A stretch of DNA of 64,000 nt, taken from the NCBI GenBank assembly GCA_028877265.1, contig JAPPGX010000191.1, forward strand, positions 66,144 to 130,143. The letters are read 5' to 3'. This DNA comes from Acidobacteriota bacterium (GTDB lineage Bacteria; Acidobacteriota; Vicinamibacteria; Marinacidobacterales; Marinacidobacteraceae). The notes beneath the pieces are model-generated. The model did not search any database, had not been told where the DNA came from, and saw only the letters and a program-made list of their open reading frames with translations. Positions within the stretch are counted from its first letter, which is position 1. Every line of letters starts with the position of its first letter. Position numbers and translations under genes: made by a program. Below are positions 1,447 through 30,196 of this stretch, one piece after another.

Positions 1447-3162
1447 TCACCCGCCGCGCTTGATGACCACCCCCGCCAGCGCCCCGATGGACCGGCCGTC
1501 CTCGATCGCGACCTGGCCGTTGACCAGCACCCAGGGCATCCCGACCACCGGACCGTCGGGGTCCATGATGGTCGCGTTGTCCTCCACCCGGTCGTAGTCA
1601 AAGGCGACGACGTCGGCCTTGCAGCCGACCCGCAGGCAGCCGCGGTCCGTCATGCCCACGATGGCGGCCGGCAGACTCGTCGAAGAGCGGACCATGAAGG
1701 GCAGGGTGATGAGCCCGCGGTCCCGCGTGTAGTGGGCGATCTTGCGGGTGTAGCTCCCCCAGAAGCGGGGATGCCGCCCCGGGGTCGCTTCAAGCGCGAT
1801 GCCGGCATCCGTCGAGGTCGCCGTGTAGTCCTGCGCCATGTACATCTCCACATCGAACCGGTCCCCGGCGATCGGCCGGATCAGCACCCCGTGGAGCAGT
1901 TCGTCGTTTCCGGTGCGGGCGAAGTCGATCAGCGTCTCGGCGACGCTCCTGCCGCTGTCCGCCGCCACTGTGGCCACCGTCTTCCCGATCAGCGAGGGAT
2001 CCTCCGGGAAAAGGACGACGATCAGCCGGTCGGCGCCTCCGAACAGGTCGATCTGCTGCTCGAGGTCCATCATCAACTCGGCGCGGATGGCTTCGTCGGC
2101 GAGGTTCGCCTCCAGGTTTGCAAGGCTCAGCAGCCCCGGCGTCCGCCGCCACTTCGGGTCGTCGAGTCCACCGGAACGGTCCGTCCCCGGGGGCGCGAAA
2201 CCCCACACGGGGATCACCCCGACCGGTCCGCCGCCGAAGGTCTCGAAGGGGTACTGATCCAGGAAGACCTGGACCCCCTGCGCCCGCGCGAGGTTGATCG
2301 CCTGCACGTCCTTCGCGGAGTGCCCCCAGCTCGAGGGTCCCTTGGCCTTGATGTGGGTCCCGACGACCCGGATGCCGGTCTCGCGGCCAATCCGGATGGT
2401 CTCGGCCATGCCGTCGGTCCCGGTCAGGGTCGGCCCGTCCACGATGCTCGGCACCTGCCAGCGCGGCATCGGCGACTGGCTGCGCTGGTGCGAGTAGTAG
2501 AACCCGTCGTAGTCCGCGACCACGTGGGCGAGCGCGATGATCTCCTCGGTCTCCGAGAAGCGGGCCGGGCGGTATTCCGGGCCCGCCCCGAGGCCCCAGG
2601 CGCCGTCCTCCATTCCTTCCCGGACCAGCTCGGCCATCCGGGCGACTTCCTCGTCGGTCGCCGGCCGCTCGTGGTCGTCGCCCATCACTTGGAGACGGAC
2701 GGTCGAGTGGCCCACGACGGGCACCACGTTGAGTCCCACTCCTTGGCTCTCGTAGGCGGCGATCTCGTCGCGGATCGGCCAGATCGGGTTCCGGCCGTCA
2801 GCGCCCATCACCACCGTGGTGATCCCCTGGGCGACCAGGTTCAGCGCCTTCCTCTCCTCCATGTCGTCGCCGACGAGCGACCGGTCGGCGTGGGAGTGGA
2901 GGTCCACCCAGCCCGGGGACACATGGAGTCCACTCACGTCGATGGTGCGGGCCGCCTCGTGTCCCTCCTGCCCGGCGAGGCGTCCCACCGCCACGACCTC
3001 GTCGCCCCGAATGCCGACGTCCGCCCGGATGGCGGGGTTGCCGCTCCCGTCGAACACCATTCCTCCGACGAGCAGCAGGTCATAGGCGGGCTGGGCGAAC
3101 CCAGGCGCCGCCAGGAGGCTCGCGACCGCCGCAAACAGCGCACTTCCGAGGACTTTCTTCAT
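1447..3162 (-). CDS. Secreted metal-dependent amidohydrolase, D-aminoacylase (N-acyl-D-amino-acid deacylase) family
   Basis: ATG at 3162 is preceded by GGAGGA. Signal peptide MKKVLGSALFAAVASLLAAPGFAQ. N-terminal DLLLVGGMVFDGSG...HVSPGWVDLHSHAD is the metal-binding HxH motif of the amidohydrolase superfamily. Length and C-terminal beta-sandwich region fit the D-aminoacylase family. Confidence 0.8.
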   Translation of the reverse strand: MKKVLGSALFAAVASLLAAPGFAQPAYDLLLVGGMVFDGSGNPAIRADVGIRGDEVVAVGRLAGQEGHEAARTIDVSGLHVSPGWVDLHSHADRSLVGDDMEERKALNLVAQGITTVVMGADGRNPIWPIRDEIAAYESQGVGLNVVPVVGHSTVRLQVMGDDHERPATDEEVARMAELVREGMEDGAWGLGAGPEYRPARFSETEEIIALAHVVADYDGFYYSHQRSQSPMPRWQVPSIVDGPTLTGTDGMAETIRIGRETGIRVVGTHIKAKGPSSWGHSAKDVQAINLARAQGVQVFLDQYPFETFGGGPVGVIPVWGFAPPGTDRSGGLDDPKWRRTPGLLSLANLEANLADEAIRAELMMDLEQQIDLFGGADRLIVVLFPEDPSLIGKTVATVAADSGRSVAETLIDFARTGNDELLHGVLIRPIAGDRFDVEMYMAQDYTATSTDAGIALEATPGRHPRFWGSYTRKIAHYTRDRGLITLPFMVRSSTSLPAAIVGMTDRGCLRVGCKADVVAFDYDRVEDNATIMDPDGPVVGMPWVLVNGQVAIEDGRSIGALAGVVIKRGG

Positions 3163-3213
3163 GGCATTCCTCCGCTGGGGTGGGCCGGCCATCGTACCGG
3201 AGGGGACAGGCTG

Positions 3214-4581
3214 CTAAGCCCTGGCCCGCCGTGCCCCAACCCCGAGCGCCAACCCGGAAGCCAGGATCAGGGTTATCGCGGCCGGGAATCCGGCCCGGGC
3301 CGCGTTGCCGGCAGGTGCCGCAGGCTCGAAGCGGGGCACCTGGTCCCACTTCACCGCATCGATCGGCGCGGTGGCGAAGAAGTGCGGGAAGAAGTGGTCC
3401 TTGAGGCGTTCGTGGAAGCGGCGCACCGCGTCCTGGTAGTCGAGTTGGGCCGCAAGGTCGGTCCCGGCGAGGCGATCCAGCGCGAGCTGGGTAGCGAGGG
3501 GCGGGGCGAACAGGGACCACCTGCGAGCCCACGCATCCCTCTCGCGCAGCACCTCGCGGTAGGCCCGGGAGGCGTCGCGGGCGGCCTGGTCTCCCCGGTG
3601 ATTCATGGCGTAATACCAGCCCCACGTGAACACGTCCTCGGGAACGGCTTGGCCGCTCCACTCGGGGTAGTCCCGGTAGAACGACTCCATCGTCGCGCTG
3701 GGCGGCAGGTCCCAGGCCTCGTGGTATCCCTGGCGCTGCTGCACCGTCAGCTCCAGCGCTTCCGGAACGGGGTGAAGAACCGCGTTGGCGAGACTCAGGG
3801 CCGCCGGAGCCAGGATCGTGAGGACGACCCAGGTGCCCGCGAGGATCATGGCGTTGGCGGTCGATGACCGGTTTCCCATCGCGACTCCGAGGCAGAGGGC
3901 GAACCAGAAGATCGTGTGCAGCGCGACGAGCGCGAACATCCAGCCGGCCCGGCCGTCGAGGTCGATGCCGGCCATCAGCGCCCCGGCGGCCATCACCACC
4001 GCGGCGACCGCGCCGACGAGAATCGCGCGGGATGCGAGCTTCGCGGCCAGGAGCCTCCGGCGGGGTGCGAACAGGCGGACCAGGTTCCAGGTGCCGCCCT
4101 CCCGTTCGCCCGAGATCAGGTCGTAGCTGACCGCGATGATGAAGAGCGGCAGCAGCGCGATGAGGAGGAATGCAAGGTCCAGATAGCCGGCGGCGGCAAG
4201 CCGCGGGTTCACGGTCTCGTGCTCGTAGAGCTGCCCTTCGAGGGCCAGGAGACGGATCCGGAGGCTCTCCGTTTCCACCGCGGCCCGGCCCCGTGCCAGG
4301 GCGGAAACCGGCAGCGGGGGCTGCGGGGCGGGAAAGGCCACGTAGTAGAGCACCTCTCCCGCGTCGGTGGTCGGCGGATAGACCGAGAGGAGAAAGTCCA
4401 ACTGGTCGTCGTAGGCGGTCTCGGCCGCCGCCAACGAAGACCGGGCGACTTCCGCGTTCCGCCCGGCGCGCCACGCGCCGTAGATTCCCAGGACGAGCAG
4501 AAGGATGATCGCGGCCGCGGTCCCGGCCGACCGGGTCAGCCGCCGGAGGTCGAGCGCCAGCAGCCGCGCCCAGGCTCTCAC
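3214..4581 (-). CDS. ABC-2-type transporter permease-like membrane protein (DUF3526-like), second of a tandem pair
   Basis: GTG start at 4581 overlaps the upstream TGA (GTGA). It has an N-terminal TM helix, a large predicted periplasmic region, then a polytopic domain with the ABC-2 signature ISGEREGGTWNLV. It is paralogous to the upstream gene. Confidence 0.6.
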   Translation of the reverse strand: MRAWARLLALDLRRLTRSAGTAAAIILLLVLGIYGAWRAGRNAEVARSSLAAAETAYDDQLDFLLSVYPPTTDAGEVLYYVAFPAPQPPLPVSALARGRAAVETESLRIRLLALEGQLYEHETVNPRLAAAGYLDLAFLLIALLPLFIIAVSYDLISGEREGGTWNLVRLFAPRRRLLAAKLASRAILVGAVAAVVMAAGALMAGIDLDGRAGWMFALVALHTIFWFALCLGVAMGNRSSTANAMILAGTWVVLTILAPAALSLANAVLHPVPEALELTVQQRQGYHEAWDLPPSATMESFYRDYPEWSGQAVPEDVFTWGWYYAMNHRGDQAARDASRAYREVLRERDAWARRWSLFAPPLATQLALDRLAGTDLAAQLDYQDAVRRFHERLKDHFFPHFFATAPIDAVKWDQVPRFEPAAPAGNAARAGFPAAITLILASGLALGVGARRARA

Positions 4582-6040
4582 GACGACCTCTCCGTTCCGA
4601 TCAGCGCCAGCCGTCTCCGCGCCAACCCGAGTCCGGTCAGCGGCAGGCCGATCCACAACCCGAGCGCGGCCAGGGAGACGGGACGGTCCGCCAGCGCTCC
4701 ACCGAGCGGCGGCGGCTCGGTCGCGAAGACGGGGAACTGCCCCCAGTGTTCGCGCGACAGCCGTTGCGCCCGGTCGTTCTCGTTCTGGATCTCGCGGATG
4801 TGGAGTTCGTTGAGACGCTGAATGATCGTGTAACGGTGCGCCTCGGCCTGGGCGAGGAACGCTTCCATCGCCTCCGGGCCGCTACCGGCGATGCCCATCG
4901 ACAGGTCCCGGGCCGCCAGGTACGGGGAGAGGAATCCCGACCATGCCATGACCCCGTTCTGGCGAAGATGACCCTTCACCAACTCCTGCCGGTGGTCCTC
5001 GAAGACCCGGCTGGTGAGTGCTTCCGATTCCCGGCTGAGCACCCCCCTCCAGTTCACCGGGAGGTCCTCGACGGCGCCGACCTGGTAGCGCTCCAGGTAC
5101 TCCTCCCGGAGCGCGTTGAAGAAGGGATCGTCCGGGCGGTGGCTATCCCCGACCTCGTTCAGCGCCTGCTCCACCTGAGCAGTGAGCTCGGCGCGCGAGG
5201 GAAGCGGATAGAGCGCTCCGGCGACGGAGGCCGCTACGCGGGGGGTGGCGACGCAGATCACCACCCACAGCGCGAGCAGTTGCGCGAGCGCGCTCCGCGA
5301 AGAGGTTCGGACGGCGGAAACGAGCACCGTGACGAGCACCCAGCCCGCGAGATAGATCCCGTAGATGCCGGCCAGGACGCCCAGCCGCGTGACGGAAGCG
5401 GGGCTGTCGAGCCCCGGCCCGGCCATGACGCCGACGGCCAGCGCGACCGGAAGCGTCGCCAGCGCCCCTACCGCTCCCGTGGCGAGAACCTTGCCCGCGA
5501 GGATCTGCGCCGGCGTCGCCCCCTGTGTCAGGAGGACGCCGAGCGTTCCCCCCTCTCGCTCGGCGCTGACCGCGGCGAAACCGGCGACAACCACCAGGAG
5601 CGGCAACAGGAGCGCGAGCACGCTCGCCGGGGTGAGGCGTCCGAAGCGCGTCATCCCGGTGGAATGACGCGCCTCGCCAAAGTTGGCCGTGTTCTGGCGA
5701 TGGCCTTCCAGGTAGATCGAGGTTCCCGCGTAATCGCTCACTCCGGGATCGACGAACTCGAGCGGCGCCTGTTCGCGAAAGACCAGGAACCCGTAGTGGA
5801 TGACCCGGTGCGGATGGCGTTCGGGCTGTTCCACCCACTGCCGATCGACCATCGCCTGGTAGCGGTCGCGCTGTTCGGTCGCGCCCGTGGCGTGATGCCG
5901 GGCGCCCACCACCGCGACCAGACCCAGGGCGATCACGAGCCCCAACAGGAACAGGACGGTGCCGTCCTGGCGAATCGCGCCCAACTGCCGTCGGGCGATG
6001 AGCAGGGTGTTGCGGAGGCCTTCCGGCGAGTTGCGCATCG
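4578..6040 (-). CDS. ABC-2-type transporter permease-like membrane protein (DUF3526-like), first of a tandem pair
   Basis: ATG at 6038 is preceded by AGAGAGG. It has an N-terminal TM helix and the ABC-2 motif VSAEREGGTLGVL within a multi-TM C-terminal half. No ABC ATPase gene is adjacent. Confidence 0.6.
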
Positions 6041-6417: not shown

Positions 6418-8862
6418 CTAGTGGAACCGCAGCGCGTAGCTCAGCCGGAACCCGCGACCCATCTCGGGGGCCCGGTCCTTGATGTACGACGTGTGGTTGC
6501 GATAGAGCTCGTTCGTCAGGTTGTAGCCCGAGAACGACAGGATGTGGGACAGGTGCTGCCGCGGCCAGACGTACGAGCCGCGCACGTTGACGACGGCATA
6601 GCCGTCGGTTTCGGTCTCGCCGCGGAACCCGTCGGTCTGCCGTCCCGCAAACTCCACCTGCGGGCTCAGCGTGAACCCGCCGTAGAGGATGTCGAGTTTC
6701 ACCGAGCCTCGGAGCGGCGGAATCCGCGGCAGCGCTTCATCGTTCGCTGTCAGCCGCGCGTCCACGTAGCCGATCCCGAGGGTCAACCAGGTCCGTCCGA
6801 CGAGCCGGGCGCCGGCCTCGGCGTCGAATCCGGCGAAGCGGCTGTCGCCCTGCAGGATGTCGAACACCGGCAGGTTGTCGATGACCGCATCCCTGCGGCT
6901 GCCGAAGATGAAGTTGTCGATCTCGTACGTGAAGAAGTTCAGGTCGCCACGGGTGCGGACCCCCCGGTGCCGCAGGCTCACGTCCAGTCCGATGGTGGAC
7001 TCGGCGTCGAGGTCCGGGTTGCCGATGTCGAACGAGAACGTGCCGGCGTGGGCGCCGAAGTTGTACAGCTCCTCGATGGCCGGGGCGCGGTGGGAGCGCG
7101 TCAGGTTGGCCACCAGCGCGTTTCCGGCGCCGAGATCCGCGTGGACTCCGACCGACGCCGACAGACCCGCGAAGCTGCGGTCGCGCACGTCGGGCGCCTC
7201 GGGCCGAGGCTCTTCCTCCTCGTGCCCGTGCTCCTCGTGTCCATGCTCCTCGTGCCCATGTTCCTCGTGCCCGTGCTCCTCTTCGTGCCCGTGCTCCTCT
7301 TCGTGCCCGGCTCCACTGCTCCGCGCCGCCACGGCGTAGTCATCGCGGTCGATCCGGGCGCCGAACTGCACTCGAAACCGCCCGAAGGTCAGTTCTTCGT
7401 AGGCGAAGGCCGCGAAGGAGCTCAGGTCGGTCCGCGGCGCCAGCGCCTCGGCTCCGGCCGCCTCGAAGTCCCGCACCTGCGCCCAGGCGCCGAATCTCCC
7501 CGACAGACGCTCCGTCTGCCGCTGGTCCACGTCGGCCCGGAAGATGTAGACCTGGTTGTCGTAGCGCGTGCCCACGCGCTCCTGCCCGGCCTCGGTCTCC
7601 AGCTCGTCATGTCCCCAGTCCACGACGCTCAGGCTGAGCCGTCCTCCCTCGATGACGCTGTTGTCGAGGTCCCTCACCCCGAAGTCGAAGCGCCCGGCGC
7701 GACGCTGCCAGTCGAGTTCGATATCGGTCGTGCCATGCATTTCCTCCTCGTGCTCGCCTTCGTGCTCGTCATGATGTTCGTCTTCGTGTCCGCCGTGCTC
7801 GTCTCCGTGGTCATCGTGGTGCACGTGGAACTCGCCGACGATCGGAACTCCATAGCGGCCGTCGTTCACCGTCACGCCGGCGCTGGTGAAGAACCGTTCG
7901 CCGGTCCAGCCGAGCCCGGCCTGCGCATGGGTCGCCTCGGTCGCGGAATTCTCGACGACCCCCGCGGGCGTGTCGTAGTCCTCCGTCCGCCGCGTGCTGC
8001 CGGAGGCCCAGTAGTGGACTCCGTTCTGCTGTGCGTGCTGCACGCTGACGTTCCCGCCCGCCTGCGCGTTCGGACTCCCCACGTCGGCGCTCAACTGCGC
8101 CCGCGTGCCTTCCGTCGGCGACGCCCGGTAGCTCTCCTGGGGCGTGATCACGTTGACGAGCCCGCCGACCGCGTTGGAGCCGTATAGCAATGTCGCCGGC
8201 CCGCGGACGATCTCGACGCGTTCCACGCCGTTGGGGTCGATGGCGACGCCATGGTCGCCGGACTCGCTCGACAGGTCTCCGGTGCGGACGCCGTCCTCCA
8301 GGATCATGACCCGGTCGCCGTCGAAGCCGCGGATGATCGGCCGGTTCGCTCCGGGACCGAAGCCGCGCACCGCAATGCCGGGCTCGTTCCGCAGGGCGTC
8401 GGCGAGATTCGTGGCCGACTCCTTGGCGATATCGAACGAGTCCATGGTGGTGACCGCGTTGAATGCCTCGAGCGCGGTCTCGGTGCCGTCCACCGAGGCG
8501 GTCACTGTCACGTCCTCGCGAACGGGTGAGAGACTGAGTTCGAAGTCCACCGTCGCCGTCCCGCCCGGAAGGACGGTGACCGTCTGCCGTCCCGCGGTGA
8601 GGAGCTCGCGTTGCGCGAGGACGTCGTAGGAGCCGGCCGGCACGCCGGCGATCGCGAACCTTCCCTGTCCGTCGGTCAACGCGAATTTGCCCGTGCCCAC
8701 GAAGAGGACGACCGCGCCGTGAACGGGGCCGTACTCCTCAAGAGTCACGGTGCCGCGAACCGCGCCGGTCTCCTGCGCCGCCACCGGCGCAGTCCCGAAG
8801 GCCGCCAGCAGGCCGGCTGCCAGGAAACAAGTCAGAAAAGAAGTGAATTTGGATCGGTACAT
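6418..8862 (-). CDS. TonB-dependent outer membrane receptor with N-terminal carboxypeptidase-regulatory-like domain and two His/Glu-rich low-complexity insertions
   Basis: ATG at 8862 is preceded by GGGAGGA. It has a signal peptide, a CarbopepD-like segment (GAVRGTVT...GQGRFAIAGVPAGSYDV), a plug domain (NLADALRNEPGIAVRGFGPG...PIIRGFDGDRVMILEDGVR...GPATLLYGSNAVGGLVNVIT), and a C-terminal barrel ending in aromatic F/H. The His-rich tracts are HVHHDDHGDEHGGHEDEHHDEHEGEHEEEMHG and GHEEEHGHEEEHGHEEHGHEEHGHEEHGHEEEE. Confidence 0.85.
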   Translation of the reverse strand: MYRSKFTSFLTCFLAAGLLAAFGTAPVAAQETGAVRGTVTLEEYGPVHGAVVLFVGTGKFALTDGQGRFAIAGVPAGSYDVLAQRELLTAGRQTVTVLPGGTATVDFELSLSPVREDVTVTASVDGTETALEAFNAVTTMDSFDIAKESATNLADALRNEPGIAVRGFGPGANRPIIRGFDGDRVMILEDGVRTGDLSSESGDHGVAIDPNGVERVEIVRGPATLLYGSNAVGGLVNVITPQESYRASPTEGTRAQLSADVGSPNAQAGGNVSVQHAQQNGVHYWASGSTRRTEDYDTPAGVVENSATEATHAQAGLGWTGERFFTSAGVTVNDGRYGVPIVGEFHVHHDDHGDEHGGHEDEHHDEHEGEHEEEMHGTTDIELDWQRRAGRFDFGVRDLDNSVIEGGRLSLSVVDWGHDELETEAGQERVGTRYDNQVYIFRADVDQRQTERLSGRFGAWAQVRDFEAAGAEALAPRTDLSSFAAFAYEELTFGRFRVQFGARIDRDDYAVAARSSGAGHEEEHGHEEEHGHEEHGHEEHGHEEHGHEEEEPRPEAPDVRDRSFAGLSASVGVHADLGAGNALVANLTRSHRAPAIEELYNFGAHAGTFSFDIGNPDLDAESTIGLDVSLRHRGVRTRGDLNFFTYEIDNFIFGSRRDAVIDNLPVFDILQGDSRFAGFDAEAGARLVGRTWLTLGIGYVDARLTANDEALPRIPPLRGSVKLDILYGGFTLSPQVEFAGRQTDGFRGETETDGYAVVNVRGSYVWPRQHLSHILSFSGYNLTNELYRNHTSYIKDRAPEMGRGFRLSYALRFH
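7199..7320 (-). repeat. Tandem in-frame 15-bp (and 18-bp) nucleotide repeats encoding (H-E-E-H-G)n inside the TonB receptor gene
   Basis: The plus strand reads ctcgtgcccgtgctc ctcgtgtccatgctc ctcgtgcccatgttc ctcgtgcccgtgctc ctcttcgtgcccgtgctc ctcttcgtgcccggc. Units are multiples of 3 bp and code for a His/Glu-rich loop. Confidence 0.8.
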
Positions 8863-9067
8863 GGTTTGTCCTCCCGATTGCCTGCCCTCGGCAAGACGGT
8901 TCCGGCAGATGCCGTGCGTACCGCGGCGAACCTCGTTCTGAGGGCGTCCCGAACGGGGTCGGGGAACGCGGTGGCCGCGGGGGGACGCGCCCGGTCAGGC
9001 GACCGCTGGCGCGCGCCGGCCCGACGCCCGCCGCTTGGCGGCGGACGAGCACGGCGTGTTCTCGGAA

Positions 9068-9370
9068 CTACGCGGGAGGAGCGCGGGCGGGCTGGCGAAG
9101 GTAGAGCCGGGATCGGACCCGGACGACCTCGCGCGCTCGTTCAGGCGGATCCGCAGCATCGGCGAAGCCGATCTGCAACGAGCCGGAGAGCTCGGTGGCG
9201 GGCTGGTGTGGAGTCTGGCAGACCGCGCAGTGCTCATCGACGGAGTGCTCTTCGTGACAGAAGACCTCCGCCGCGGCGGCACCGGCCACCACCAACACCA
9301 GGAGAGCGATCCAGGCGCTCCAGCCAAGGCTGCGCCGGGCGAGCCTCGGGTGCGCGGTTCCTCGTCGCAT
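9068..9370 (-). CDS. Small N-terminally membrane-anchored Cys/His-rich protein (about 100 aa), putative metal-binding accessory protein of the downstream TonB receptor
   Basis: The sequence is MRRGTAHPRLARRSLGWSAWIALLVLVVAGAAAAEVFCHEEHSVDEHCAVCQTPHQP. A TM/signal helix is followed by C-H-x2-H...H-C-x2-C. It is reminiscent of DUF2946-type proteins found next to metal TonB-dependent receptors. There is no clear RBS. Confidence 0.35.
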   Translation of the reverse strand: MRRGTAHPRLARRSLGWSAWIALLVLVVAGAAAAEVFCHEEHSVDEHCAVCQTPHQPATELSGSLQIGFADAADPPERAREVVRVRSRLYLRQPARAPPA

Positions 9371-9572
9371 TGCTGTCGAATCGAACGGGCCAGTATACGG
9401 GCGACGAGTGTTTGCCGTAAGCCTCGTTTCGCCTCCGTCCCTGGATCATCGGTCTTCCACGTCCGGCCAAGACGCCACGCAGAACGCCTCGCAAAGGCGC
9501 AATTCGGCCGGGATCCATCTCCCGTCGGGCGCCGCCTGGGTTCTTGCCACGGGCTGCTAACGTCCACTCAAC

Positions 9573-12500
9573 ATGCTGGACCGACTCTCCGCCTGTCTCA
9601 CATTGCATCTGGTTTCCGGGTTTCTGGTGATTCCCTCGGGAGCGGCAATCGCGCAGCCCGTCCCGGTGGACTCCTCGCAGCTTGGCGGTCTCCAGTGGCG
9701 CACCATCGGGCCCGACGGGAACCGGCTGAGCGCCGCCGCTGGCGAGTGGGGCAACCCCGATGTCATCTACTTCGGCGCCGCGTCCGGGGGGATCTGGAAG
9801 ACCAGCGACCGGGGCGTCGCCTGGGAGCCGGTCTTCGACGACCAGGAGGCGGCTTCGATCAGCGCGCTCGCCGTTTCACCGTCCCATCCCGGCCAGGTGT
9901 GGGCCGGGACCGGCGAGACCTTCATCATCCGGCCGGCGCTCGCGATGGGGAACGGCATCTACCGTTCCACCGACGGCGGGCGGTCCTTCCATCACCGGGG
10001 CCTCGAGGCAACCGGGCGCATCGCCCGCATCCTGGTCCATCCCGAGGACCCGGACCTCGTCTACGCCTGCGCCCTGGGCCACTCCTATGCGCCGCAGCCG
10101 GAGCGCGGGGTCTATCGGACGCGGGACGGAGGCGCGAACTGGGACCTGGTGCTCCATGTGGACGAAGACACCGGTTGTTCCGACCTGGCGATGGACCTCC
10201 GCCATCCCGAGCGGCTGCTGGCCGGGATGTGGCAGCTCCAGATCGACACCGGCGGGCTCCGGAGCGGGGGGCCGGGCAGCGGGCTCTACCGCTCGCGCGA
10301 CGGGGGCGACTCCTGGGAACGAATTTCGGGCGCGAAGTCCGATTCCGCCGGAGGCCGGGGCCTGCCCGGCGGCGAAGACCATCCCATCGGCAAGGTCGCC
10401 GTGGGGATCGCCCCGAGCGACCCCGACCGCTGGTACGCCCTGATCGAGGACGAGAGTCCGGGCTTCTACCGCTCCGACGACGGCGGCGATTCCTGGCGCC
10501 TCATGATGACCCACCACGATCTCGCCGAACGGGCGCCCTACTACGTCCGGATCGCCGTGGATTCCGCGGACGCCAACCGCGTCTATTTCGCCTCGGTGCT
10601 CTTCAGTACCACCGTGGACGGCGGCCGCACGTTGATCGAGACCTCCTACCGCGCCGGCGGCGACAACCACGACGTCTGGGTGGATCCCTGGATGCCGGAG
10701 CGCATCCTGGTCGGGCACGACGGGGGCGGCAGCATCTCCGAGAACCGCGGCGCGAGCTGGCGCCGGGTCGTACCGCCGGTGGCCCAGATGTACCACGTCA
10801 CCGTGGACGACCGGATCCCCTACCGCGTCTACGGGAACCGCCAGGACGGCTACTCCTACCGGGGCCCCAGCCGGACCCCCGGCGGCGGAATCCCGCTCGG
10901 ACTCTGGGAGGGGGTCGGGGGCTGCGAGAGCGGCTGGGCTACCCCCGAACCCCACGACGACAACGTGGTCTGGTCGGGGTGTTACGACGGCGGGCTCGAG
11001 ATCTACGACGACCGCACGGGACACGTCCGTGACATCCGGGTCTGGCCGGAGGCGGGCTACGGCTGGGCGCCCGCGGACCTGAAGGTGCGCTGGCACTGGA
11101 ACTTCCCGATGGTCCTGTCGCGCCACGAACCGGGGACCACCTGGGTCGGCAGCCAGTTCGTGCACAAGAGCACGAACCGGGGCCAGTCGTGGGAGACCAT
11201 CAGCCCCGACCTGACCACGAACGACAAGTCGCGCCAGCAGGACTCCGGCGGCATCACCGTCGACAACCTCTACACCTTCGACGGCTCGGTGCTCTTCGCG
11301 CTCGCCGAGTCACCGGTCCAGGCGGGCCAGCTCTGGGCCGGAAGCGTGGACGGGAAGGTCCACGTCACCACCGACGGCGGGGAGACCTGGCTCGACCGCA
11401 GCGGGAACGTGCCGGAGCTCGACCAGGACGCCTGGATCAAGTTCATCGAGCCCTCGCACCACGATCCGGAGACCGCCTACCTGGCGGTGAGCTGGCACCA
11501 GTCGGGCGACTTCCGGCCGCACGTCTACCGCACCCGGAATCTCGGGGAGAGCTGGGAGCGCATCAGCGGCGGAATCCCCGAGTCCCCGTTCTCGTTCGTC
11601 CACGTGGTGCGGGAGGACCCGGGCCGCGCCGGCATCCTCTTCGCCGGCACCGACAACAAGGTCTGGGCCAGCCTCGACGACGGCGAATCCTGGTTCTCCC
11701 TCCAGCTCGACATGCCGCCGGCGCCCATCTACGGGATGGTCATCCAGGAACGCTTCCAGGACCTGGTGGTCGCGACCTACGGCCGCGGCTTCTACATCCT
11801 GGACGGTATCGGTCCGCTTCGGGATCTCGCCGAGGCGTCGAACGATCCGCTCCGGGTCTTCGATTCGCCGACCGCGTGGCGGTTCCTGCCGCGGCAGAGC
11901 ATCAAGTCGGAGCCGGGCAGCCTGGTGACCGGCCGGAACGCTCCCTATGGCGCTCCCATCTCCTGGTGGCTCGACGAGGATGCAGCTTCCGATCGGGCCG
12001 AAATCGCGATCGTGAACGCCGCAGGGGAGACCGTGCGAACGCTTCGCGGTCCCGGAGCCGCCGGGCTTTCACGGGTGTACTGGGACCTCCGCGGTGATAC
12101 CCCCGACCGGGCCACCCTCCGGACCCGGCCTCCCGACCGGGACTGGGTGGAAATGGGCGAGGACGGGCAGCGCCGGATCCGCACGTGGGACCTCGACATC
12201 TTCCCCGGTTACCGCGGTCTGCTTCAGCCACCCGGGTCCTACACTGCGCGGGTCACGGTGGGGGAGCACGCCGCGGAGACCACCCTGCGGGTGGAGGTCG
12301 ATCCCGCATCCGCCGCCACCCCCGACGACATCGGGGAGAAGTACGCGTTCCTGAACGCCATCCACGACCAGTTGAACGAACTGGCGGAGATGGTGGACGA
12401 GCTGGAGTGGGTGCGCCGCGAGATCGAGGGGCTCCGGGAGCGCCACGCCGGCGACGAGCGGTTCACCGCGCTGCTCGAAAGTGCGGGTGAGATCGCCGGC

Positions 12501-12791
12501 ACCGCGATCGCCATCGAGGGAAGGTTCTTCGACGTGGGGCTCACCGGAGCCCGCGAGGACGCTTTCCGGGCGCCGATGCGGCTCTACGGCCGCCTTGGCG
12601 CGCTCGCGAACGACGCCGGCTGGGACGGCGCCGACTTCGCGCCCACCGACCAGCAGCGCGAAGTCCACCGGGTTCTCACGGAGCGGTTCGAAACGGCCCG
12701 CGGGGAATACCGCCGGTTGATGGACGAACAGCTTCCGCCATTCTGGCGGGCGCTCGCCGAGGCGCGCGCAGGAGACGGCGGTCCGGATTAA
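9573..12791 (+). CDS. Secreted BNR/Asp-box repeat protein, sortilin/VPS10-like (Ycf48-like beta-propeller) family, about 1070 aa
   Basis: Multiple Asp-box motifs (S/T-x-D-x-G-x-S/T-W): RSTDGGRSF, RTRDGGANW, RSRDGGDSW, RSDDGGDSW, TTDGGETW, STNRGQSW, RTRNLGESW, SLDDGESW. It has an N-terminal signal-like segment. Confidence 0.8.
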   Translation: MLDRLSACLTLHLVSGFLVIPSGAAIAQPVPVDSSQLGGLQWRTIGPDGNRLSAAAGEWGNPDVIYFGAASGGIWKTSDRGVAWEPVFDDQEAASISALAVSPSHPGQVWAGTGETFIIRPALAMGNGIYRSTDGGRSFHHRGLEATGRIARILVHPEDPDLVYACALGHSYAPQPERGVYRTRDGGANWDLVLHVDEDTGCSDLAMDLRHPERLLAGMWQLQIDTGGLRSGGPGSGLYRSRDGGDSWERISGAKSDSAGGRGLPGGEDHPIGKVAVGIAPSDPDRWYALIEDESPGFYRSDDGGDSWRLMMTHHDLAERAPYYVRIAVDSADANRVYFASVLFSTTVDGGRTLIETSYRAGGDNHDVWVDPWMPERILVGHDGGGSISENRGASWRRVVPPVAQMYHVTVDDRIPYRVYGNRQDGYSYRGPSRTPGGGIPLGLWEGVGGCESGWATPEPHDDNVVWSGCYDGGLEIYDDRTGHVRDIRVWPEAGYGWAPADLKVRWHWNFPMVLSRHEPGTTWVGSQFVHKSTNRGQSWETISPDLTTNDKSRQQDSGGITVDNLYTFDGSVLFALAESPVQAGQLWAGSVDGKVHVTTDGGETWLDRSGNVPELDQDAWIKFIEPSHHDPETAYLAVSWHQSGDFRPHVYRTRNLGESWERISGGIPESPFSFVHVVREDPGRAGILFAGTDNKVWASLDDGESWFSLQLDMPPAPIYGMVIQERFQDLVVATYGRGFYILDGIGPLRDLAEASNDPLRVFDSPTAWRFLPRQSIKSEPGSLVTGRNAPYGAPISWWLDEDAASDRAEIAIVNAAGETVRTLRGPGAAGLSRVYWDLRGDTPDRATLRTRPPDRDWVEMGEDGQRRIRTWDLDIFPGYRGLLQPPGSYTARVTVGEHAAETTLRVEVDPASAATPDDIGEKYAFLNAIHDQLNELAEMVDELEWVRREIEGLRERHAGDERFTALLESAGEIAGTAIAIEGRFFDVGLTGAREDAFRAPMRLYGRLGALANDAGWDGADFAPTDQQREVHRVLTERFETARGEYRRLMDEQLPPFWRALAEARAGDGGPD

Positions 12792-14753: not shown

Positions 14754-15857
14754 ATGGCCGACACGGCCTCGCTGCTCGACAGTTGGGAGAGCGAGGTCCA
14801 GGCGGCCTGGCTCTACCTGGTGCTCGCGGAGATCGAGACCGGAGAGAACAAGCGCCTCTTCGAAGCGCTCTCGGCGGACGCGCTGGAACAGAGCAAGTCG
14901 TGGGTCAAGGCGATCGAGGACGCGGGTGGTTCGCCTCCCGGCCCCTACGAGGCGCCCTTCCGGGTGCGGCTCGTGGGCACGCTGATCCGGCGGATCGGCC
15001 CGCGCTCGCTGCTGCCCGCGCTCGCCGCGCTGAAGGTGCGCGGCCTCTCCGTCTACCGGGCGGCGCCGTCGAGCCTCGAGGTGCTCATCGCGCAGGAGGC
15101 CGGTTCGAGCGTCCGCGCGGAGTCCCGCGATCACCTGCTGGGCGAAGAGCAGCGCCACCTCTACACCCGCGGGGCGGTCGCGCTTCACGCCGCGATCTTC
15201 GGGGCGAACGACGGGCTGGTGTCGAACACGGCCCTCATCCTGGCCGCGACGGGCGCCGGCGCCTCTCCGGGCACGGCGCTCCTCATCGGCGCCGCCGGAA
15301 TGGTGGCGGGCGCCGTTTCGATGGCCACCGGGGAGTACCTCGGGGTGCGCTCGCGGATCGAACTCTACGAGCGGCAGATCGCGCTCGAGGAGGAGGAGTT
15401 GCGGCTCTACCCGGACGACGAGGCCGAGGAGCTGGCGATGATCTTCGAGGCGCGTGGTCTCGAGCGCGAGGCCGCCCGCGATCTCGGCAAGCGCCTGATC
15501 AGCGAGCCCGCCCGCGCGCTCGATGTGCTGACGCGCGAGGAACTCGGCCTGAATCCGGACGATCTGGGTTCGCCCTGGGCATCGGCGCTGGCCTCGCTGC
15601 TGAGCTTCGGCGGCGGAGCGCTGGTCCCGCTGCTTCCCCTCGCGCTCCTCCCGGCGCTCGGTCTGGGCAGCGGCCCCGCACTGCTCGGAGCGGTGGCCCT
15701 GAGCGGGGTGGCGCTTTTCGTGTCGGGGGCGGCGACGAGCCTGTTCACGGGCCGTTCCGGCATTCGCAGCGGCTTTCGACTGGCCTCCGTGGGGCTTGCG
15801 CTCTCGGGTGTCCTTTACGGTCTCGGGCTCGTCGTCGGGGCGAGCCTCGGCGGCTGA
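14754..15857 (+). CDS. mbfA: Membrane-bound ferritin-like iron exporter: N-terminal erythrin (rubrerythrin/ferritin-like) domain fused to a VIT1/CCC1 family transporter (MbfA-like)
   Basis: The N-terminal ferritin-like helices carry E-x-x-H-type pairs (EIETGENKRLFEALSADALEQSKSW ... EEQRHL). The VIT1 signature AIFGANDGLVSNTALILAATGAG is followed by Gly-rich TM helices. The RBS is GGGAG. Confidence 0.8.
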   Translation: MADTASLLDSWESEVQAAWLYLVLAEIETGENKRLFEALSADALEQSKSWVKAIEDAGGSPPGPYEAPFRVRLVGTLIRRIGPRSLLPALAALKVRGLSVYRAAPSSLEVLIAQEAGSSVRAESRDHLLGEEQRHLYTRGAVALHAAIFGANDGLVSNTALILAATGAGASPGTALLIGAAGMVAGAVSMATGEYLGVRSRIELYERQIALEEEELRLYPDDEAEELAMIFEARGLEREAARDLGKRLISEPARALDVLTREELGLNPDDLGSPWASALASLLSFGGGALVPLLPLALLPALGLGSGPALLGAVALSGVALFVSGAATSLFTGRSGIRSGFRLASVGLALSGVLYGLGLVVGASLGG

Positions 15858-15864
15858 GGGCGAC

Positions 15865-16749
15865 ATGTTCAGGGGACGAGCGTCTGGTGCGGCGCTCGCC
15901 GCCCTCACGCTCCTGCTGGCGCTCGCCACGGGATGCGGATCGGATGACGCTCCCGCGCCCACGGCTCCGCCGCCTCTGGAGCCGCCCCCGGTCGGGCCGC
16001 CGCCGAACACGCTCGATCTTCCCGACGACCCCGGACATTTCTTCCTGGAAGTCTGGGAGGGCCCGGGTTTCGTTCCCATCGAATACTCGCTGGGACGGCC
16101 GCCCCGCTACGCGGTGACCGTCGGGGGCGAGCTCTATAGCGAGGGGCCGACCATCCAGATCTTTCCCGGCCCGCTGCTGCCGAACATCCAGGTGGGGCGG
16201 CTCTCCGCGGAGGACTTGGCGGCGATCATCGAGGCGACCGCGTCGACCGGGATCTCCCAGCTCGGGGAGGTGAACATTCCCCAGCCCACCACGGGTCCCG
16301 TGATCGCCGACGCGCCGACCTACGAGGTGGTGCTGCGTGACCGGCAGGGTTCGCACCTGCTCCGCATCGAGGCCCTGGGCTCGATATCGCACACCGATCC
16401 CCGGGTGATCGCGGTCCGCGAACTGATGCAGCGCCTCGACGAGGCCATCGCCGACACCGAGGCCGAGGTCTACCTCGGCGAACGCGTGCAGGTGTACGTC
16501 AGCGAGGGTCCCATGCCTCCCGAGCCGTCGGTGCTGAACGAGCGGCCCTGGCCGCTTCCGGACCCGCCGCCCGGGGACGAGGATGCGGAGGGCTTCGAGT
16601 GCCGGGTGTACGGGGGACAGGTTGCCGCGGGTCTCCTCGAGATCTTCGCGGACGCCGACCATGGAACGCGGTGGGACTACCACGGCGCCCTTCACCAGAT
16701 CCTCGCCCGTTCCCTGCTGCCTCACGAGGAGGGGTGCCGCACTTCGTGA
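15865..16749 (+). CDS. Hypothetical lipoprotein (Pro-rich linker, about 295 aa)
   Basis: ATG at 15865. Signal peptide plus lipobox LLLALATGCGSD, then a Pro-rich linker. It lies between mbfA and the serine hydrolase in the same orientation. Confidence 0.55.
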   Translation: MFRGRASGAALAALTLLLALATGCGSDDAPAPTAPPPLEPPPVGPPPNTLDLPDDPGHFFLEVWEGPGFVPIEYSLGRPPRYAVTVGGELYSEGPTIQIFPGPLLPNIQVGRLSAEDLAAIIEATASTGISQLGEVNIPQPTTGPVIADAPTYEVVLRDRQGSHLLRIEALGSISHTDPRVIAVRELMQRLDEAIADTEAEVYLGERVQVYVSEGPMPPEPSVLNERPWPLPDPPPGDEDAEGFECRVYGGQVAAGLLEIFADADHGTRWDYHGALHQILARSLLPHEEGCRTS

Positions 16750-18266
16750 ACGGCGGCGCAAGCTTCCGGCGTGCGGCGGCCCTGCTGCTCGCGGCGGTGC
16801 TGTGGTCGGCTCCCGTTTCGGCGTTCCAGGAGTTCGACGCCGGGGAGTTCCACGCCTACGTCGAGCAGGCGGTCGCCGACTGGGACGCCACCGGTCTCGC
16901 GGTCGCCGTCGTCCGGGGGCAGGAACTGTTGTTCGCTCGCGGTTACGGCGTCCTCGAACTCGGCAAGCCCGACGCGGTGGACCCCGACACCCTGTTCTCG
17001 GTCGGCTCGACCACCAAGGCGATGACCGCGGCGACGCTCGGCATCCTCGTGGATGAGGGGAAGCTGGCCTGGGACGATCCGGTGCGCCGGCACATCCCCG
17101 AGTTCGAGGTTGACGATCCCTGGGTCAGCGAGGCGATGACCGTGCGCGACCTCCTGACGCACCGCGGCGGGCTGCCGAACACCGATCTCTTCTGGTACGG
17201 CCAGGACACCGACATGGACGAGATGCTGTCGCGGCTCCGCCACGTCGAGCCCGCCTACTCGATGCGGTCCGGGTTCATCTACCAGAACGTGATGTACGCG
17301 ACCGCCGGCGAGGTCGTGAAGCGCGTCTCCGGGATGCCGTGGCATGACTTCGTGGACTCGCGCATCTTCGACCGGCTGGGGATGGAGCGAACGGTGGCCC
17401 TGCTCGCGCTCACCCGGGGCCGCGGCAACGTGGCCTCGCCCCACCATGTGGTGGACGGCGAGACGGTGGTGATCGAGAACGCGCCGGTGGATTCGGTGGC
17501 CGCGGCGGGATCGGTCTGGAGTTCCGTCCGCGAGATGTCGCTCTGGCTGCGCATGCTCCTCGCGTCCGGAGTGGCGGCCGACGGCACGCGGATTCTCAGC
17601 GAAGCGGTGGTCGAGGAGATGTTCCGCCCCCAGGCGCTGGTGGACCGGGCCGGTTTCTACCCGACCCAGCAACTGACGAAGCCCAAGTGGGTGACCTACG
17701 GCCTCGGCTGGTTCCAGCAGGACTACGACGGAGAGGCTCTCGACTTCCACACCGGGAGCATCGACGGGATGGTGGCCATCGCCGGCCTGATCCGGGACGA
17801 GGGGATCGGCGTCTATGTCCTCGGCAACCGCGACCACGTGGAGGTGCGGCACGCGCTGATGCTGCGCGGTCTCGATTCCCTGCTGGGAAAGCCGTTCCGG
17901 GACTGGAGCGCGGAGCTGAAGGAGGTCTACGTCGGCCTGGCCGAAGCGCAGGAGAAGACGCTCGCCGCGCTGCAGGCGGCGCGGACGGAGGACTCGCGGT
18001 CCCACCTCGAGCCGTCCGCGTACGCCGGGACCTACCGCCACGAGGTGGGAGGCGAGATCGTGGTCCGCGCCGGGGAGGAAGGCATCCGCCTCGAGTACGG
18101 CCCGGGTCTTCAGGGGCCGCTCACCCACTGGAGCCACGAGACCTTCCGGGTAGCCTGGGACGCCCGCTGGCGCGGCGAGTTGCTGGTGACCTTTGACCTC
18201 GATTCCGCGGGGAATCCCGCCGGCCTTTCGCTCGGCGAAACGAGGTTCCGGCGCGTCGCGGAGTAG
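16746..18266 (+). CDS. Secreted serine hydrolase of the beta-lactamase / penicillin-binding-protein (class C-like) family
   Basis: GTG at 16746 overlaps the upstream TGA (GTGA). Signal peptide RRAAALLLAAVLWSAPVSA. S-x-x-K active-site motif in FSVGSTTKAMTAATLGILV. The fold length fits family-EstB/AmpC-like esterases. Confidence 0.75.
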   Translation: MNGGASFRRAAALLLAAVLWSAPVSAFQEFDAGEFHAYVEQAVADWDATGLAVAVVRGQELLFARGYGVLELGKPDAVDPDTLFSVGSTTKAMTAATLGILVDEGKLAWDDPVRRHIPEFEVDDPWVSEAMTVRDLLTHRGGLPNTDLFWYGQDTDMDEMLSRLRHVEPAYSMRSGFIYQNVMYATAGEVVKRVSGMPWHDFVDSRIFDRLGMERTVALLALTRGRGNVASPHHVVDGETVVIENAPVDSVAAAGSVWSSVREMSLWLRMLLASGVAADGTRILSEAVVEEMFRPQALVDRAGFYPTQQLTKPKWVTYGLGWFQQDYDGEALDFHTGSIDGMVAIAGLIRDEGIGVYVLGNRDHVEVRHALMLRGLDSLLGKPFRDWSAELKEVYVGLAEAQEKTLAALQAARTEDSRSHLEPSAYAGTYRHEVGGEIVVRAGEEGIRLEYGPGLQGPLTHWSHETFRVAWDARWRGELLVTFDLDSAGNPAGLSLGETRFRRVAE

Positions 18267-18309
18267 CCTTGACGGCACTGTCGTTCCTTCCTATCCTGCT
18301 CGCACGAAG

Positions 18310-18462
18310 ATGAGGTCCAATACCAGTTTCTGGCAACGTCTTCCCGGCGCGAATCGCCCCGTCGTCAAGAAGATCGCCGGCGCGGCGTTCCTCTTCTTCC
18401 TGATCAAGGGCCTCGTCTGGCTCGGCGTGATTGCGGCCGGAGCGTGGGCCCTGACGCGGTAG
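18310..18462 (+). CDS. Possible small membrane protein (50 aa) with a C-terminal TM helix
   Basis: MRSNTSFWQRLPGANRPVVKKIAGAAFLFFLIKGLVWLGVIAAGAWALTR. It sits in an otherwise empty 200-bp gap and has no clear RBS, so it is speculative. Confidence 0.25.
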   Translation: MRSNTSFWQRLPGANRPVVKKIAGAAFLFFLIKGLVWLGVIAAGAWALTR

Positions 18463-18469
18463 CCACGAG

Positions 18470-19099
18470 TTGTCGGCCATGACCGGAGGACTCGCGGATC
18501 GCCTCAAGGCGGGGACCGCCGACCAGCACGCTGCGGCGGAGAACCACGTCTTCCAGCAAGACCTGGTCCGGGGCGAGGTTTCGCGCACGGCGCTCGTCGC
18601 GCACCAGTCCGCGATGCTCGATCTCGTCCGCCTGATCCACGCGCGCCTCCTCGCCCAGGGGCCGGACTGGCAGGACTTCGCCCAGGCCATGGGTGGCCAC
18701 GCCGGGAGGCTGGCCCACGATCTGGAGGAACTCGGCGGCGAATCTCAGGAACGGCCCTCCCGGGCGGTCATGGAGTTCGCCGGTGCGTTGGGCGGCGCGC
18801 GCTGGACTCCGGAAGCGACTCTCGCGGCCTTCTACGTGATCGAGGGCTCCATGAACGGCAACCGTTTCATCCGCCGCGTGCTCGTGGAGAACCGTCCGGA
18901 GCTGGCCGGTTGCCTGCGTTACTTCGATCCCTACGGTCAGGGTCAGCGGGCCCGCTGGAAGGAGTTCCGGAGCGCTATCGACAGGATCGGTGCGACGCTT
19001 TCCGACCCCGAGGCGGCGGTCCGCGCCGCGCGGGAGACGTTCACGCTGGCGGGAACGTTGGCGAGCGAGGCCCAGGCCGCGGACGCGGTAGCCGCCTGA
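18470..19099 (+). CDS. Heme oxygenase (canonical HO-1-type fold)
   Basis: N-terminal LADRLKAGTADQHAAAENHVFQQDLVRGEVSRTALVAHQSAML aligns with the HO-1 proximal-helix block [38 protein letters not shown], including the proximal His. The distal block YVIEGSMNGNRFI corresponds to YTRYLGDLSGGQVL. Confidence 0.8.
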   Translation: MSAMTGGLADRLKAGTADQHAAAENHVFQQDLVRGEVSRTALVAHQSAMLDLVRLIHARLLAQGPDWQDFAQAMGGHAGRLAHDLEELGGESQERPSRAVMEFAGALGGARWTPEATLAAFYVIEGSMNGNRFIRRVLVENRPELAGCLRYFDPYGQGQRARWKEFRSAIDRIGATLSDPEAAVRAARETFTLAGTLASEAQAADAVAA

Positions 19100-19127
19100 G
19101 GCGCCAGGAGACGAAACCCGGGATCCG

Positions 19128-19472
19128 ATGGCCGACTGCTGGATCGCGCTGACGACCCTGTCGAGCCGGGAGCAGGCCGAGCAACTGGCTGAGGCGCTGG
19201 TGGCGGAACGCCTTGCCGCCTGCGTCAACGTGCTCGGACCGGTAGCGTCCATCTACCGGTGGGAGGGCAAGGTCGCGCGCGACGAAGAAGTTCTTCTCCT
19301 CATCAAGACCACGAAGACGGGCGTCGCACCGCTGCAGACACGGGTGCTCGAACTCCACCCCTACGACACCCCTGAATTCCTCGCCTTCGAGGTCGGCTCC
19401 GGCTCGGCCGGGTACCTGGACTGGGTGGTGGATTCGGTCGCATCGGCCAGGCCGGACGAAGCGGAACCCTGA
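19128..19472 (+). CDS. cutA: Divalent-cation tolerance protein CutA (CutA1 family)
   Basis: 114 aa. The N-terminal block reads ALTTLSSREQAEQLAEALVAERLAACVNVLGPVASIYRWEGKV and the C-terminal block reads LLIKTTKTGVAPLQTRVLELHPYDTPEFLAFEV. This matches the CutA1 fold pattern. Confidence 0.85.
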   Translation: MADCWIALTTLSSREQAEQLAEALVAERLAACVNVLGPVASIYRWEGKVARDEEVLLLIKTTKTGVAPLQTRVLELHPYDTPEFLAFEVGSGSAGYLDWVVDSVASARPDEAEP

Positions 19473-29943: not shown

Positions 29944-30196
29944 TAAAAGTCACGAGATTCGCGTGGCCTGAACGGGAGTTCCAGAAGTTCCCGGAACGCC
30001 GCGTGGCGGGCGGTGTTCCATGGGGTGTTGACGGGCTTCGGATTTCGCTATCCGTCTACCTGGCTTCAGGAACGGAACCCGTCCCCCGGAATAAAACCGC
30101 TCGTTAGGGAAGACGCCCTTGTTCGGCGTCCCGAGTCCGGGAAAGCCTTGTCAGTTTCCAGCAGTTCTTCTGTTTCTCGAAGGGAGGAGGCGAACG

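Follow-up and report, generated by a model that had tools for sequence, protein, structure and literature searches.

The DNA analysed here is a 64-kb stretch of contig JAPPGX010000191.1 from an Acidobacteriota bacterium of the class Vicinamibacteria (64,000 nucleotides (nt); hereafter the window). Its minus strand encodes a TonB-dependent outer-membrane receptor that carries two histidine-rich tracts and, upstream of it across an untranslated spacer, a small open reading frame (ORF), here called the leader, which combines a signal peptide, a Cys/His motif and a C-terminal RAPP sequence. The features of this pair are listed below in the direction of transcription, each with the evidence for it in brackets. 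L-numbers here and elsewhere denote fetched loci of receptor relatives, and pLDDT is the predicted local distance difference test score of a structural model.

9392..9420, minus strand: promoter-like TTACGG-17-TATACT upstream of the leader (by eye, conserved in L005/L020)
9068..9370, minus strand: leader ORF of 100 amino acids, CruR/CutF-like, divergent DUF2946 (conservation, motifs, sub-threshold Pfam match)
9269..9322, minus strand: hydrophobic core of the leader signal peptide, residues 17-34 (by inspection)
9218..9259, minus strand: putative metal-sensing motif of the leader, C38-H39-E-E-H42 ... C48-A-V-C51 (conservation)
9074..9085, minus strand: arrest motif of the leader, R96-A-P-P99, one residue before the stop and 44 after CxxC (conservation, spacing)
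8863..9067, minus strand: untranslated leader-receptor spacer of 205 nt, with a hairpin at 9025-9047 and a mildly C-rich middle
6418..8862, minus strand: receptor gene, encoding a ZnuD-like TonB-dependent transporter of 814 amino acids (ORF; Pfam, NCBIfam, PDB and fold matches)
8533..8760, minus strand: N-terminal CarboxypepD_reg domain, residues 35-110 (Pfam E=3e-11; pLDDT 72-91)
8494..8517, minus strand: TonB box EDVTVTAS, residues 116-123 (conservation and PDB alignment)
8161..8463, minus strand: Plug domain, residues 134-234, with D203-H204 at 8251-8256 (Pfam, alignments)
7726..7848, minus strand: predicted extracellular loop L3, residues 339-379, which carries His/Asp/Glu tract 1 (model strands 5/6; ZnuD alignment)
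7603..7611, minus strand: H418-D419-E420, of which E420 aligns with Glu340 of ZnuD (alignments)
7180..7329, minus strand: predicted extracellular loop L6, residues 512-561, which carries His/Glu tract 2 (model strands 11/12; ZnuD alignment)
7048..7050, minus strand: H605 in L7, which aligns with His499 of ZnuD (alignments)

The receptor ORF begins with ATG, 7 nt downstream of the Shine-Dalgarno sequence GGGAGG, and its third-position GC content of 0.88 is typical for genes of this 68-70% GC window. An earlier note made from the DNA sequence had described the protein as a plug-and-barrel TonB-dependent receptor with an N-terminal CarboxypepD_reg domain, and Pfam and a 22-strand structural model bear this out. 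The protein comprises a signal peptide, the CarboxypepD_reg domain, the TonB box, the plug and a 22-strand barrel, with the TonB-dependent barrel domain of Pfam at residues 403-782. Within the TonB box, which aligns with the N-terminal ETMTVTAT of ShuA/ChuA, residues E116, T119, V120, T121 and A122 are invariant among 65 homologues. The mature receptor contains no Cys and four Met; the sole Cys is residue 12, within the signal peptide, and the whole protein has five Met. The C-terminus, encoded at 6418-6423, reads ...RFH. A terminal His is atypical for the C-terminal beta-signal of outer-membrane proteins; among the 120 closest homologues, 51 end in His and 67 in Phe.

The earlier note had pointed to ZnuD, the zinc receptor, and this proved to be the nearest characterised relative by NCBIfam, PDB sequence search and fold comparison alike. 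The best NCBIfam match was ZnuD (NF038289) with 224.1 bits (E 4e-66), to be read against a curated cut-off of 950 bits, so that the receptor is a distant ZnuD-like protein and not an orthologue by the NCBI criterion. In sequence searches of the PDB, ZnuD came first with E 2.9e-32 (next hit 3e-16), and with a family profile the corresponding values were 7e-49 and 1.9e-20. Foldseek likewise placed the ZnuD entries 4rdr, 4rdt and 4rvw on top of the matches to the receptor model (E 2e-28), at ~18-20% identity over the fold. The zinc ligands of ZnuD are Asp99, His100, Glu340 and His499 (PMC4557270), and these align with D203, H204, E420 and H605 of the receptor. All four residues are invariant in the 65 homologues, and nearly all of ~80 receptors from several phyla, among them Acidobacteriota, Gammaproteobacteria, SAR86 and Verrucomicrobia, retain them, while in four SAR86-type and related receptors of this larger set the ligand Glu is replaced by Asp. 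The predicted buried metal site is, by alignment, ZnuD's own four-ligand site. Database relatives of the receptor number more than 4,200 proteins at E<=1e-10, and the top 120 are all at least 60% identical to it. The closest genomes are metagenome-assembled genomes (MAGs) of Vicinamibacteria, namely 'Acidobacteria bacterium SB0661_bin_8' (97% identity) and a Vicinamibacteraceae MAG (82%).

The two low-complexity tracts said to interrupt the receptor both read exactly as the earlier note had quoted them. Tract 1 comprises residues 345-377 (7732-7830, minus strand) and tract 2 residues 519-551 (7210-7308, minus strand), and each contains 11 His in 33 residues, compared with 14 in 748 (1.9%) for the rest of the receptor (binomial P 1.3e-11 per tract, ~1e-8 when corrected for all sequence windows). 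The DNA of tract 2 is a 15-nt coding tandem repeat of ~5.9 copies, and homologues at 80-97% identity differ here by insertions and deletions of whole units. As the quoted tracts are present, enriched in His and variable in repeat units among homologues, they are real, variable features of the protein and no assembly artefacts. Strong His tracts occur in L3 in 26 of the 120 closest homologues, in L6 in 50 and in both loops in 18; at a lower threshold, the counts are 91 for L3 and 78 for L6. The tract units differ among homologues (HE, HD, HDD and others), which suggests that L3 and L6 are hypervariable metal-binding low-complexity regions, and by its sequence the window receptor stands at the rich end of the family's range.

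The placement of the tracts was read from an AlphaFold2 model built on the 65 homologues, in which the barrel strands mostly reach a pLDDT of 70-85. Counted from the plug, the 22 strands of this model place tract 1 in L3, which joins strands 5 and 6, and tract 2 in L6, which joins strands 11 and 12; the periplasmic turns are 2-7 residues long and nearly free of His. In the alignment with ZnuD, tract 1 matches cluster 1 of L3 (HSHEYDDCHAD) and tract 2 takes the position of L6 (residues 430-459). Model topology and, independently, homology agree in assigning both tracts to extracellular loops, as the earlier note had supposed, and neither to periplasmic turns nor to the plug.

The leader ends in ...ARAPPA followed by the stop codon, and its signal peptide, read by inspection, has an Arg-rich N-terminus and an 18-residue hydrophobic stretch, then AAA/E. 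In an alignment of 138 relatives, C48, C51, R96, P98 and P99 are invariant (C48 and C51 in A3 too), and H39 and H42 are at least 90% conserved. Among the top 148 relatives, the spacing from CxxC to R(A/G)PP is 42-46 residues in 141 and exactly 44, the mode, in 96; the arrest motif is RAPP in 91 and RGPP in 52, and about three His fall within the 20 residues before CxxC. A comparison with the leader of L005 gave 17 nonsynonymous and 6 synonymous codon changes, and it appears from the sequences that only the motifs and their spacing are conserved while the remaining peptide evolves fast. CruR and CutF are exported nascent peptides with a CxxC or CxxxC motif, a spacing of ~45 residues and a C-terminal proline arrest motif, and control, over a long spacer, the next gene (PMC9426467; PMC9973294); in Bp2923 (CruR) the distance from CxxC to RAPP is 45 (PMC9426467). 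RAPP and RGPP are experimentally robust arrest motifs; ordinary proteins strongly avoid them, and small ORFs that precede TonB-related genes are enriched in them at the C-terminus (PMC12992588).

The window leader matches Pfam DUF2946 (PF11162) over profile positions 57-117 with 18.6 bits (E=0.0034), below the gathering score of 23.7 bits. Among the leaders, no family other than DUF2946 recurs (55 of 138 at E<=0.01, best 7e-7), and one leader relative has a precomputed PF11162 label. A profile search of 1.84 billion representatives recovered the leader class as 619 clusters. The subclass is mostly unannotated, its members appearing as 'hypothetical protein' or with no Pfam label, and public gene calls often skip the leader or put an antisense ORF over it (L002 7458-7736, L003 7268-7489). 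Judged by its sequence, the leader has the anatomy of a DUF2946 RAPP arrest peptide of the CruR/CutF type, and for this reason it is probably the regulator of the receptor.

Leader and receptor are linked well beyond the window. A same-strand leader stands directly 5' of every Vicinamibacteria orthologue of the receptor, at 43-100% identity, and a pattern search of all fetched loci found a leader-type ORF on the same strand before the receptor in 53 of 88, including loci from marine Gammaproteobacteria, SAR86, Bryobacterales, Acanthopleuribacteraceae and Verrucomicrobia. The loci had been fetched by receptor peptides only, and the association was therefore not built into the sample. In distant Gammaproteobacteria, leader and receptor mostly stand alone, without informative partners.

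Between the two genes, orthologous spacers measure 204-266 nt. The 10-bp hairpin of the window spacer, which begins 20 nt after the leader stop, is kept with one compensatory change. A conserved RNA switch in the spacer was considered and rejected on a fold z of -0.88 and almost no covariation, with one short hairpin kept. The earlier note had looked to 8863-9067 for metal-responsive operators; this stretch is the leader-receptor spacer and not a promoter region, and no Zur/Fur/CsoR-like palindrome (inverted repeat of at least 12 nt) was found in 8840-9600, the acidobacterial Zur operator itself not being identified. Upstream of the leader, the promoter-like element has the form TTTACA-18-TACACT in close relatives. 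It was read by eye and a sigma-70 consensus scan returned nothing at its threshold, so the evidence for a promoter is weak.

The surroundings of the pair include the following genes.

4578..6038, minus strand: ABC-2 permease with DUF3526, probably 486 amino acids, the ORF extending to 6245 (Pfam DUF3526 1.9e-31, ABC2_membrane_2 3.3e-19)
3214..4656, minus strand: second ABC-2 permease with DUF3526, start uncertain (Pfam DUF3526 9.9e-37; synteny as for the first)
1447..3192, minus strand: secreted amidohydrolase of 581 amino acids, 21 nt after the permeases (Pfam Amidohydro_3)
9573-12791, plus strand: sortilin/BNR-repeat protein of 1,072 amino acids, divergent from the leader and conserved in L001, L005, L006 and L020
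19128-19472, plus strand: CutA, 10 kb from the receptor

A DUF3526 permease follows the receptor in L005, L006 and L020 as well. The amidohydrolase, syntenic only in the window's own clade, is possibly on the same transcript as the permeases, and any tie to the system is conjectural. Outside this clade, relatives carry an ATP-binding cassette (ABC) ATPase, together with a second leader, in the interval from the receptor to the permeases. In L087 (2315-16702), four paralogous leaders precede the receptor, an ABC ATPase with two DUF3526 permeases, a CobN-like protein of 1,597 amino acids and an SGL/NHL protein; the window showed no remnant of this ATPase or of the second L087 leader. Three or four paralogous CxxC...RxPP leaders, each before another unit, also occur in L011, L013, L015, L018, L019 and L078, and in L019 and L078 one of them precedes a MerC-like protein. 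By their sequences, these multi-leader Vicinamibacterales loci look like a leader-controlled regulon. We found no literature on DUF3526. In Caulobacter, a receptor stands beside an ABC-2 ATPase and two ABC-2 permeases (ZnuK with ZnuGHI) and is Zur-regulated (PMC4176598), and in Pseudomonas aeruginosa ZnuD-like and CobN-like genes are Zur-regulated (PMC4542158).

The earlier note had also counted CutA as a supporting neighbour. This link was dropped, as the gene lies 10 kb off on the opposite strand with five unrelated genes between, and is not syntenic in L006/L007. It closes a row of plus-strand genes at 14754-19472 (a VIT1-family iron/manganese transporter, a beta-lactamase-fold protein, haem oxygenase and CutA) whose names relate to metals and which show no link to the receptor; of these, VIT1, haem oxygenase and CutA are encoded 6-10 kb off on the opposite strand, and L006/L007 share no synteny with the window past the sortilin-like gene. 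The plus-strand stretch 30119-34916 encodes a second outer-membrane protein (CarboxypepD_reg + OMP_b-brl_4, 982 amino acids) and, directly after it, a gamma-glutamyltranspeptidase. SecM/Apd-type RAPP arrest peptides occur upstream of secA in other bacteria; in the window secA is at the edge (61046-63832, minus strand), with its upstream region beyond the window.

We read the locus as a ZnuD-type importer of free divalent metal under nascent-peptide control, and put the probability of this reading at roughly 60%. It builds on observed features, namely the domain anatomy, loop topology, conservation of the ZnuD ligands, cross-phylum linkage, leader spacing and long spacer. The receptor would import a divalent transition-metal ion in free form, with no chelator, across the outer membrane. 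Its flexible, acidic, His-rich loops L3 and L6 would provide low-affinity capture sites, as proposed for ZnuD, and would pass the ion to the buried site made up of D203/H204 at the plug tip, E420 in the barrel wall and H605 in L7, from which the action of TonB on the EDVTVTAS box would free it into the periplasm. Expression of the receptor would probably be set after transcription start by the 100-codon leader, whose nascent peptide would stall the ribosome at the C-terminal RAPP. At the stall, the motif of two His and CxxC would stand outside the exit tunnel and bind metal; its position 44 residues upstream of RAPP would place CxxC just out of the tunnel and thus make binding possible. By analogy with Bordetella CruR, metal would relieve the stall and leave the spacer unprotected, and transcription or translation of the receptor would end; both this direction and any role of Rho are conjectural. 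Under metal scarcity, the stall would be kept and the receptor made, probably together with the two DUF3526 ABC-2 permeases, which we suppose to be co-transcribed.

As to the metal, zinc is the most likely candidate, at a little under even odds. It is favoured by the predicted site, which is that of ZnuD, and by a mature receptor without a Cys or Met site or track. Zinc also fits the partner gene classes, which are Zur-regulated elsewhere, and the two extra conserved His of the leader subclass, which complete a Cys2His2-like set not reported for the DUF2946 logo. The small Cys/His protein that the earlier note had enlisted for divalent-metal uptake is real, conserved and linked to the receptor. 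As the only characterised relatives of such leaders respond to copper, the metal is less settled than the word zinc would imply. Tentatively, the leader subclass may be a zinc-sensing branch of the DUF2946 arrest peptides that replaces or supplements Zur in Vicinamibacteria, many marine Gammaproteobacteria, SAR86 and Verrucomicrobia, with a post-transcriptional regulon of the ZnuD-like receptor, the ABC-2/DUF3526 transporter and CobN-like, MerC-like and SGL/NHL proteins. If this is true, zinc would gain its first nascent-peptide sensor; no riboswitch, cis-acting RNA or peptide sensor is known for this metal.

Several points weigh against a ZnuD-type importer under leader control. On the receptor side, the model has low overall confidence (mean pLDDT 59, plug <50), the match to ZnuD of 224 bits lies far below the 950-bit cut-off, so specificity may have changed, and part of the locus fetching used His-tract peptides, which enriches for His-rich receptors. 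On the side of regulation, the spacer folds no better than its shuffles (z = -0.88, alignment covariation term -0.69), and a Rho site is not demonstrated there, the spacer having only a mild C-over-G skew. No ORF with Walker A and LSGGQ, as expected of an ABC ATPase for the DUF3526 pair, was found in the window. CruR and CutF, which alone among DUF2946 leaders have been characterised, both respond to copper, and His/Asp/Glu ligands, like 2His+2Cys motifs, bind Cu(II), Ni and Co as well.

The main rival is a copper importer. The leader would then be a functional CruR orthologue that senses Cu through CxxC and shuts off the receptor when Cu is sufficient, and the His/Glu loops would capture Cu(II). 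It leads the alternatives because Cu is what all leaders tested so far sense, and because His and carboxylate ligands suit Cu(II), too. To this can be added that DUF2946 genes are cofit with copper receptors in Pseudomonas, that the metals bound by OprC and ZnuD sit only 2.8 Å apart, and that ABC2_membrane_2, found in the first permease, is the NosY-type family. We nevertheless consider copper unlikely. The identity of the receptor with OprC/NosA was tried and rejected, since TIGR01778 gives 52.8 bits against a cut-off of 472 and the CxxxM-HxM site and methionine track are not present. Nor is the receptor shown to be like CrtA, which clusters apart and binds copper in chelated form at another site (PMC12914433); the conserved CrtA site is Y130, W265, E337, Q356, H358 and R395, and no CrtA was among the PDB hits of the receptor. 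A PepSY_TM gene is downstream in >75% of CrtA loci. None was found by Pfam downstream of the window receptor, where the DUF3526 permeases stand instead, and among the relatives such a gene was seen in L002 only, a point for copper. None of the loci with Pfam labels showed a gene for CopC, PCuAC, Sco, YcnI or a multicopper oxidase, and the extra His pair of the leader subclass and the Zur-regulated partner classes, already named for zinc, speak against copper too.

Less probable again is a nickel/cobalt or broad divalent-cation scavenging receptor, with the His loops as a general metal sponge and a leader that answers to any borderline metal in abundant supply. Ni and Co are classically bound by His-rich tracts, and a CobN-like gene belongs to the leader-controlled set of L087, but the binding site is ZnuD's, and no NikR, B12 riboswitch, urease or hydrogenase genes were seen near the receptor in the window.

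A further alternative concerns the leader alone and is, in our estimate, slightly more improbable still: the small ORF could encode a stable exported metallochaperone or accessory protein, with an unrecognised transcription factor in control of the receptor. A signal peptide together with a Cys/His metal motif would suit such a protein, and with the acidobacterial Zur operator not identified, its absence is not provable. A stable protein is, however, hard to square with a peptide in which only motifs and spacing are conserved (17 nonsynonymous against 6 synonymous changes), or with the RAPP/RGPP ending that ordinary proteins avoid and small leader ORFs carry at the C-terminus. The constant 44-residue spacing and the long spacer are functional hallmarks of CruR, and in one locus the genes behind the paralogous leaders are unrelated. 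A receptor for haem (or another chelate), of ShuA/HasR type and with incidental low-complexity His tracts, is very improbable: although TIGR01786 (164 bits) and TIGR01785 (155 bits) match, ShuA, ChuA and PhuR are the next-best PDB hits, ShuA/HasR also use a plug-tip His and a His between FRAP- and NPNL-like motifs (H605 lies between HRAP and NPDL) and the window has a haem oxygenase gene at 18470-19099, both scores are far below the curated cut-offs (324 and 317), the haem-receptor hits span only the TonB box, plug and first barrel strands, ZnuD itself was shown not to translocate haem, the Asp and Glu ligands belong to ZnuD, as does the His-rich L3, the oxygenase gene is 10 kb off on the other strand in a region not syntenic in L006/L007, and the leader bears a metal-ion motif.

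Knowledge of outer-membrane metal uptake comes chiefly from a small number of pathogens and from transcriptional repressors, Zur and Fur among them, and the organisms concerned here are abundant, uncultured bacteria of soil, sediment and sea. A ZnuD-type importer under leader control would join two recent ideas in one locus, chelator-free ZnuD-type receptors and CruR/CutF-type arrest peptides that sense metal, in a pairing that is widespread. If the leaders sense zinc, they offer a directly testable case of post-transcriptional zinc control, and the slippage-prone repeat that codes for the His/Glu loop is a natural series for relating loop length to metal capture.

Among characterised receptors, ZnuD of Neisseria meningitidis (4RDR/4RDT/4RVW) shares with the window receptor the plug and 22-strand barrel, a buried site formed from a plug-tip Asp-His, a barrel-wall Glu and an L7 His, a long flexible L3 with His/Asp/Glu clusters and an L6 over the pocket; ZnuD needs no metallophore, and by analogy the window receptor would need none. 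The window receptor differs in its added N-terminal CarboxypepD_reg domain, in the second His/Glu tract of L6, which is repetitive in DNA, and in its upstream region, where a RAPP leader ORF takes the place of a Zur box, none having been found at the receptor. The host differs as well: the window organism is not known as a pathogen, so that 'piracy' of metal from host proteins, suggested in the earlier note, has no basis and nothing in its favour. OprC/NosA resemble the proposed receptor in chelator-free import of ionic metal and in a metal site at a nearly equal barrel position, but use a CxxxM-HxM site and a surface methionine track in place of the His/Glu tracts; oprC has a cruR homologue just 5' of it. 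ZnuK/ZnuGHI of Caulobacter crescentus again set a TonB-dependent receptor beside an ABC-2-type transporter, a likeness of gene class, with a ZnuGHI-like full set of one ATPase and two permeases in L087. In Caulobacter, Zur represses these genes from a defined operator; the window's clade is without the ATPase.

Among leader peptides, CutF of Rhodobacter capsulatus is likewise a Sec-exported nascent peptide, whose Cys/His metal motif precedes the proline arrest motif at the C-terminus by ~45 residues. In the CutF-like class, which is stated not to be Cu-specific in all its members, TonB-type genes rank second among neighbours by frequency (PMC9973294). At high Cu, CutF activates a detoxifying oxidase, as a stem-loop that covers the neighbouring ribosome-binding site is melted; in the window, the downstream gene is an importer 205 nt away, and CruR-type logic, opposite to that of CutF, is therefore expected. 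With CruR of Bordetella pertussis, too, a small exported ORF heads the operon, with CxxC, 44-45 residues and a C-terminal RAPP, and a long GC-rich spacer (162 nt there, 205 nt here) leads to a TonB-dependent transporter, CrtA/BfrG. Unlike CruR, the window leader falls below the Pfam DUF2946 threshold and has two additional conserved His before CxxC, its RAPP is one residue from the end, compared with three in Bp2923, its receptor is ZnuD-like (CrtA, compared by description only, forms a cluster of its own), and its phylum, Acidobacteriota, is not listed in the 2022 survey. His-rich ZnuD-like receptors and RAPP leaders before TonB-dependent genes are thus both known kinds, and what is new at this locus is their pairing across several phyla, the largely unannotated subclass of leaders with added His, the second His/Glu loop (L6) with its coding repeat and the multi-leader gene set in Vicinamibacteria.

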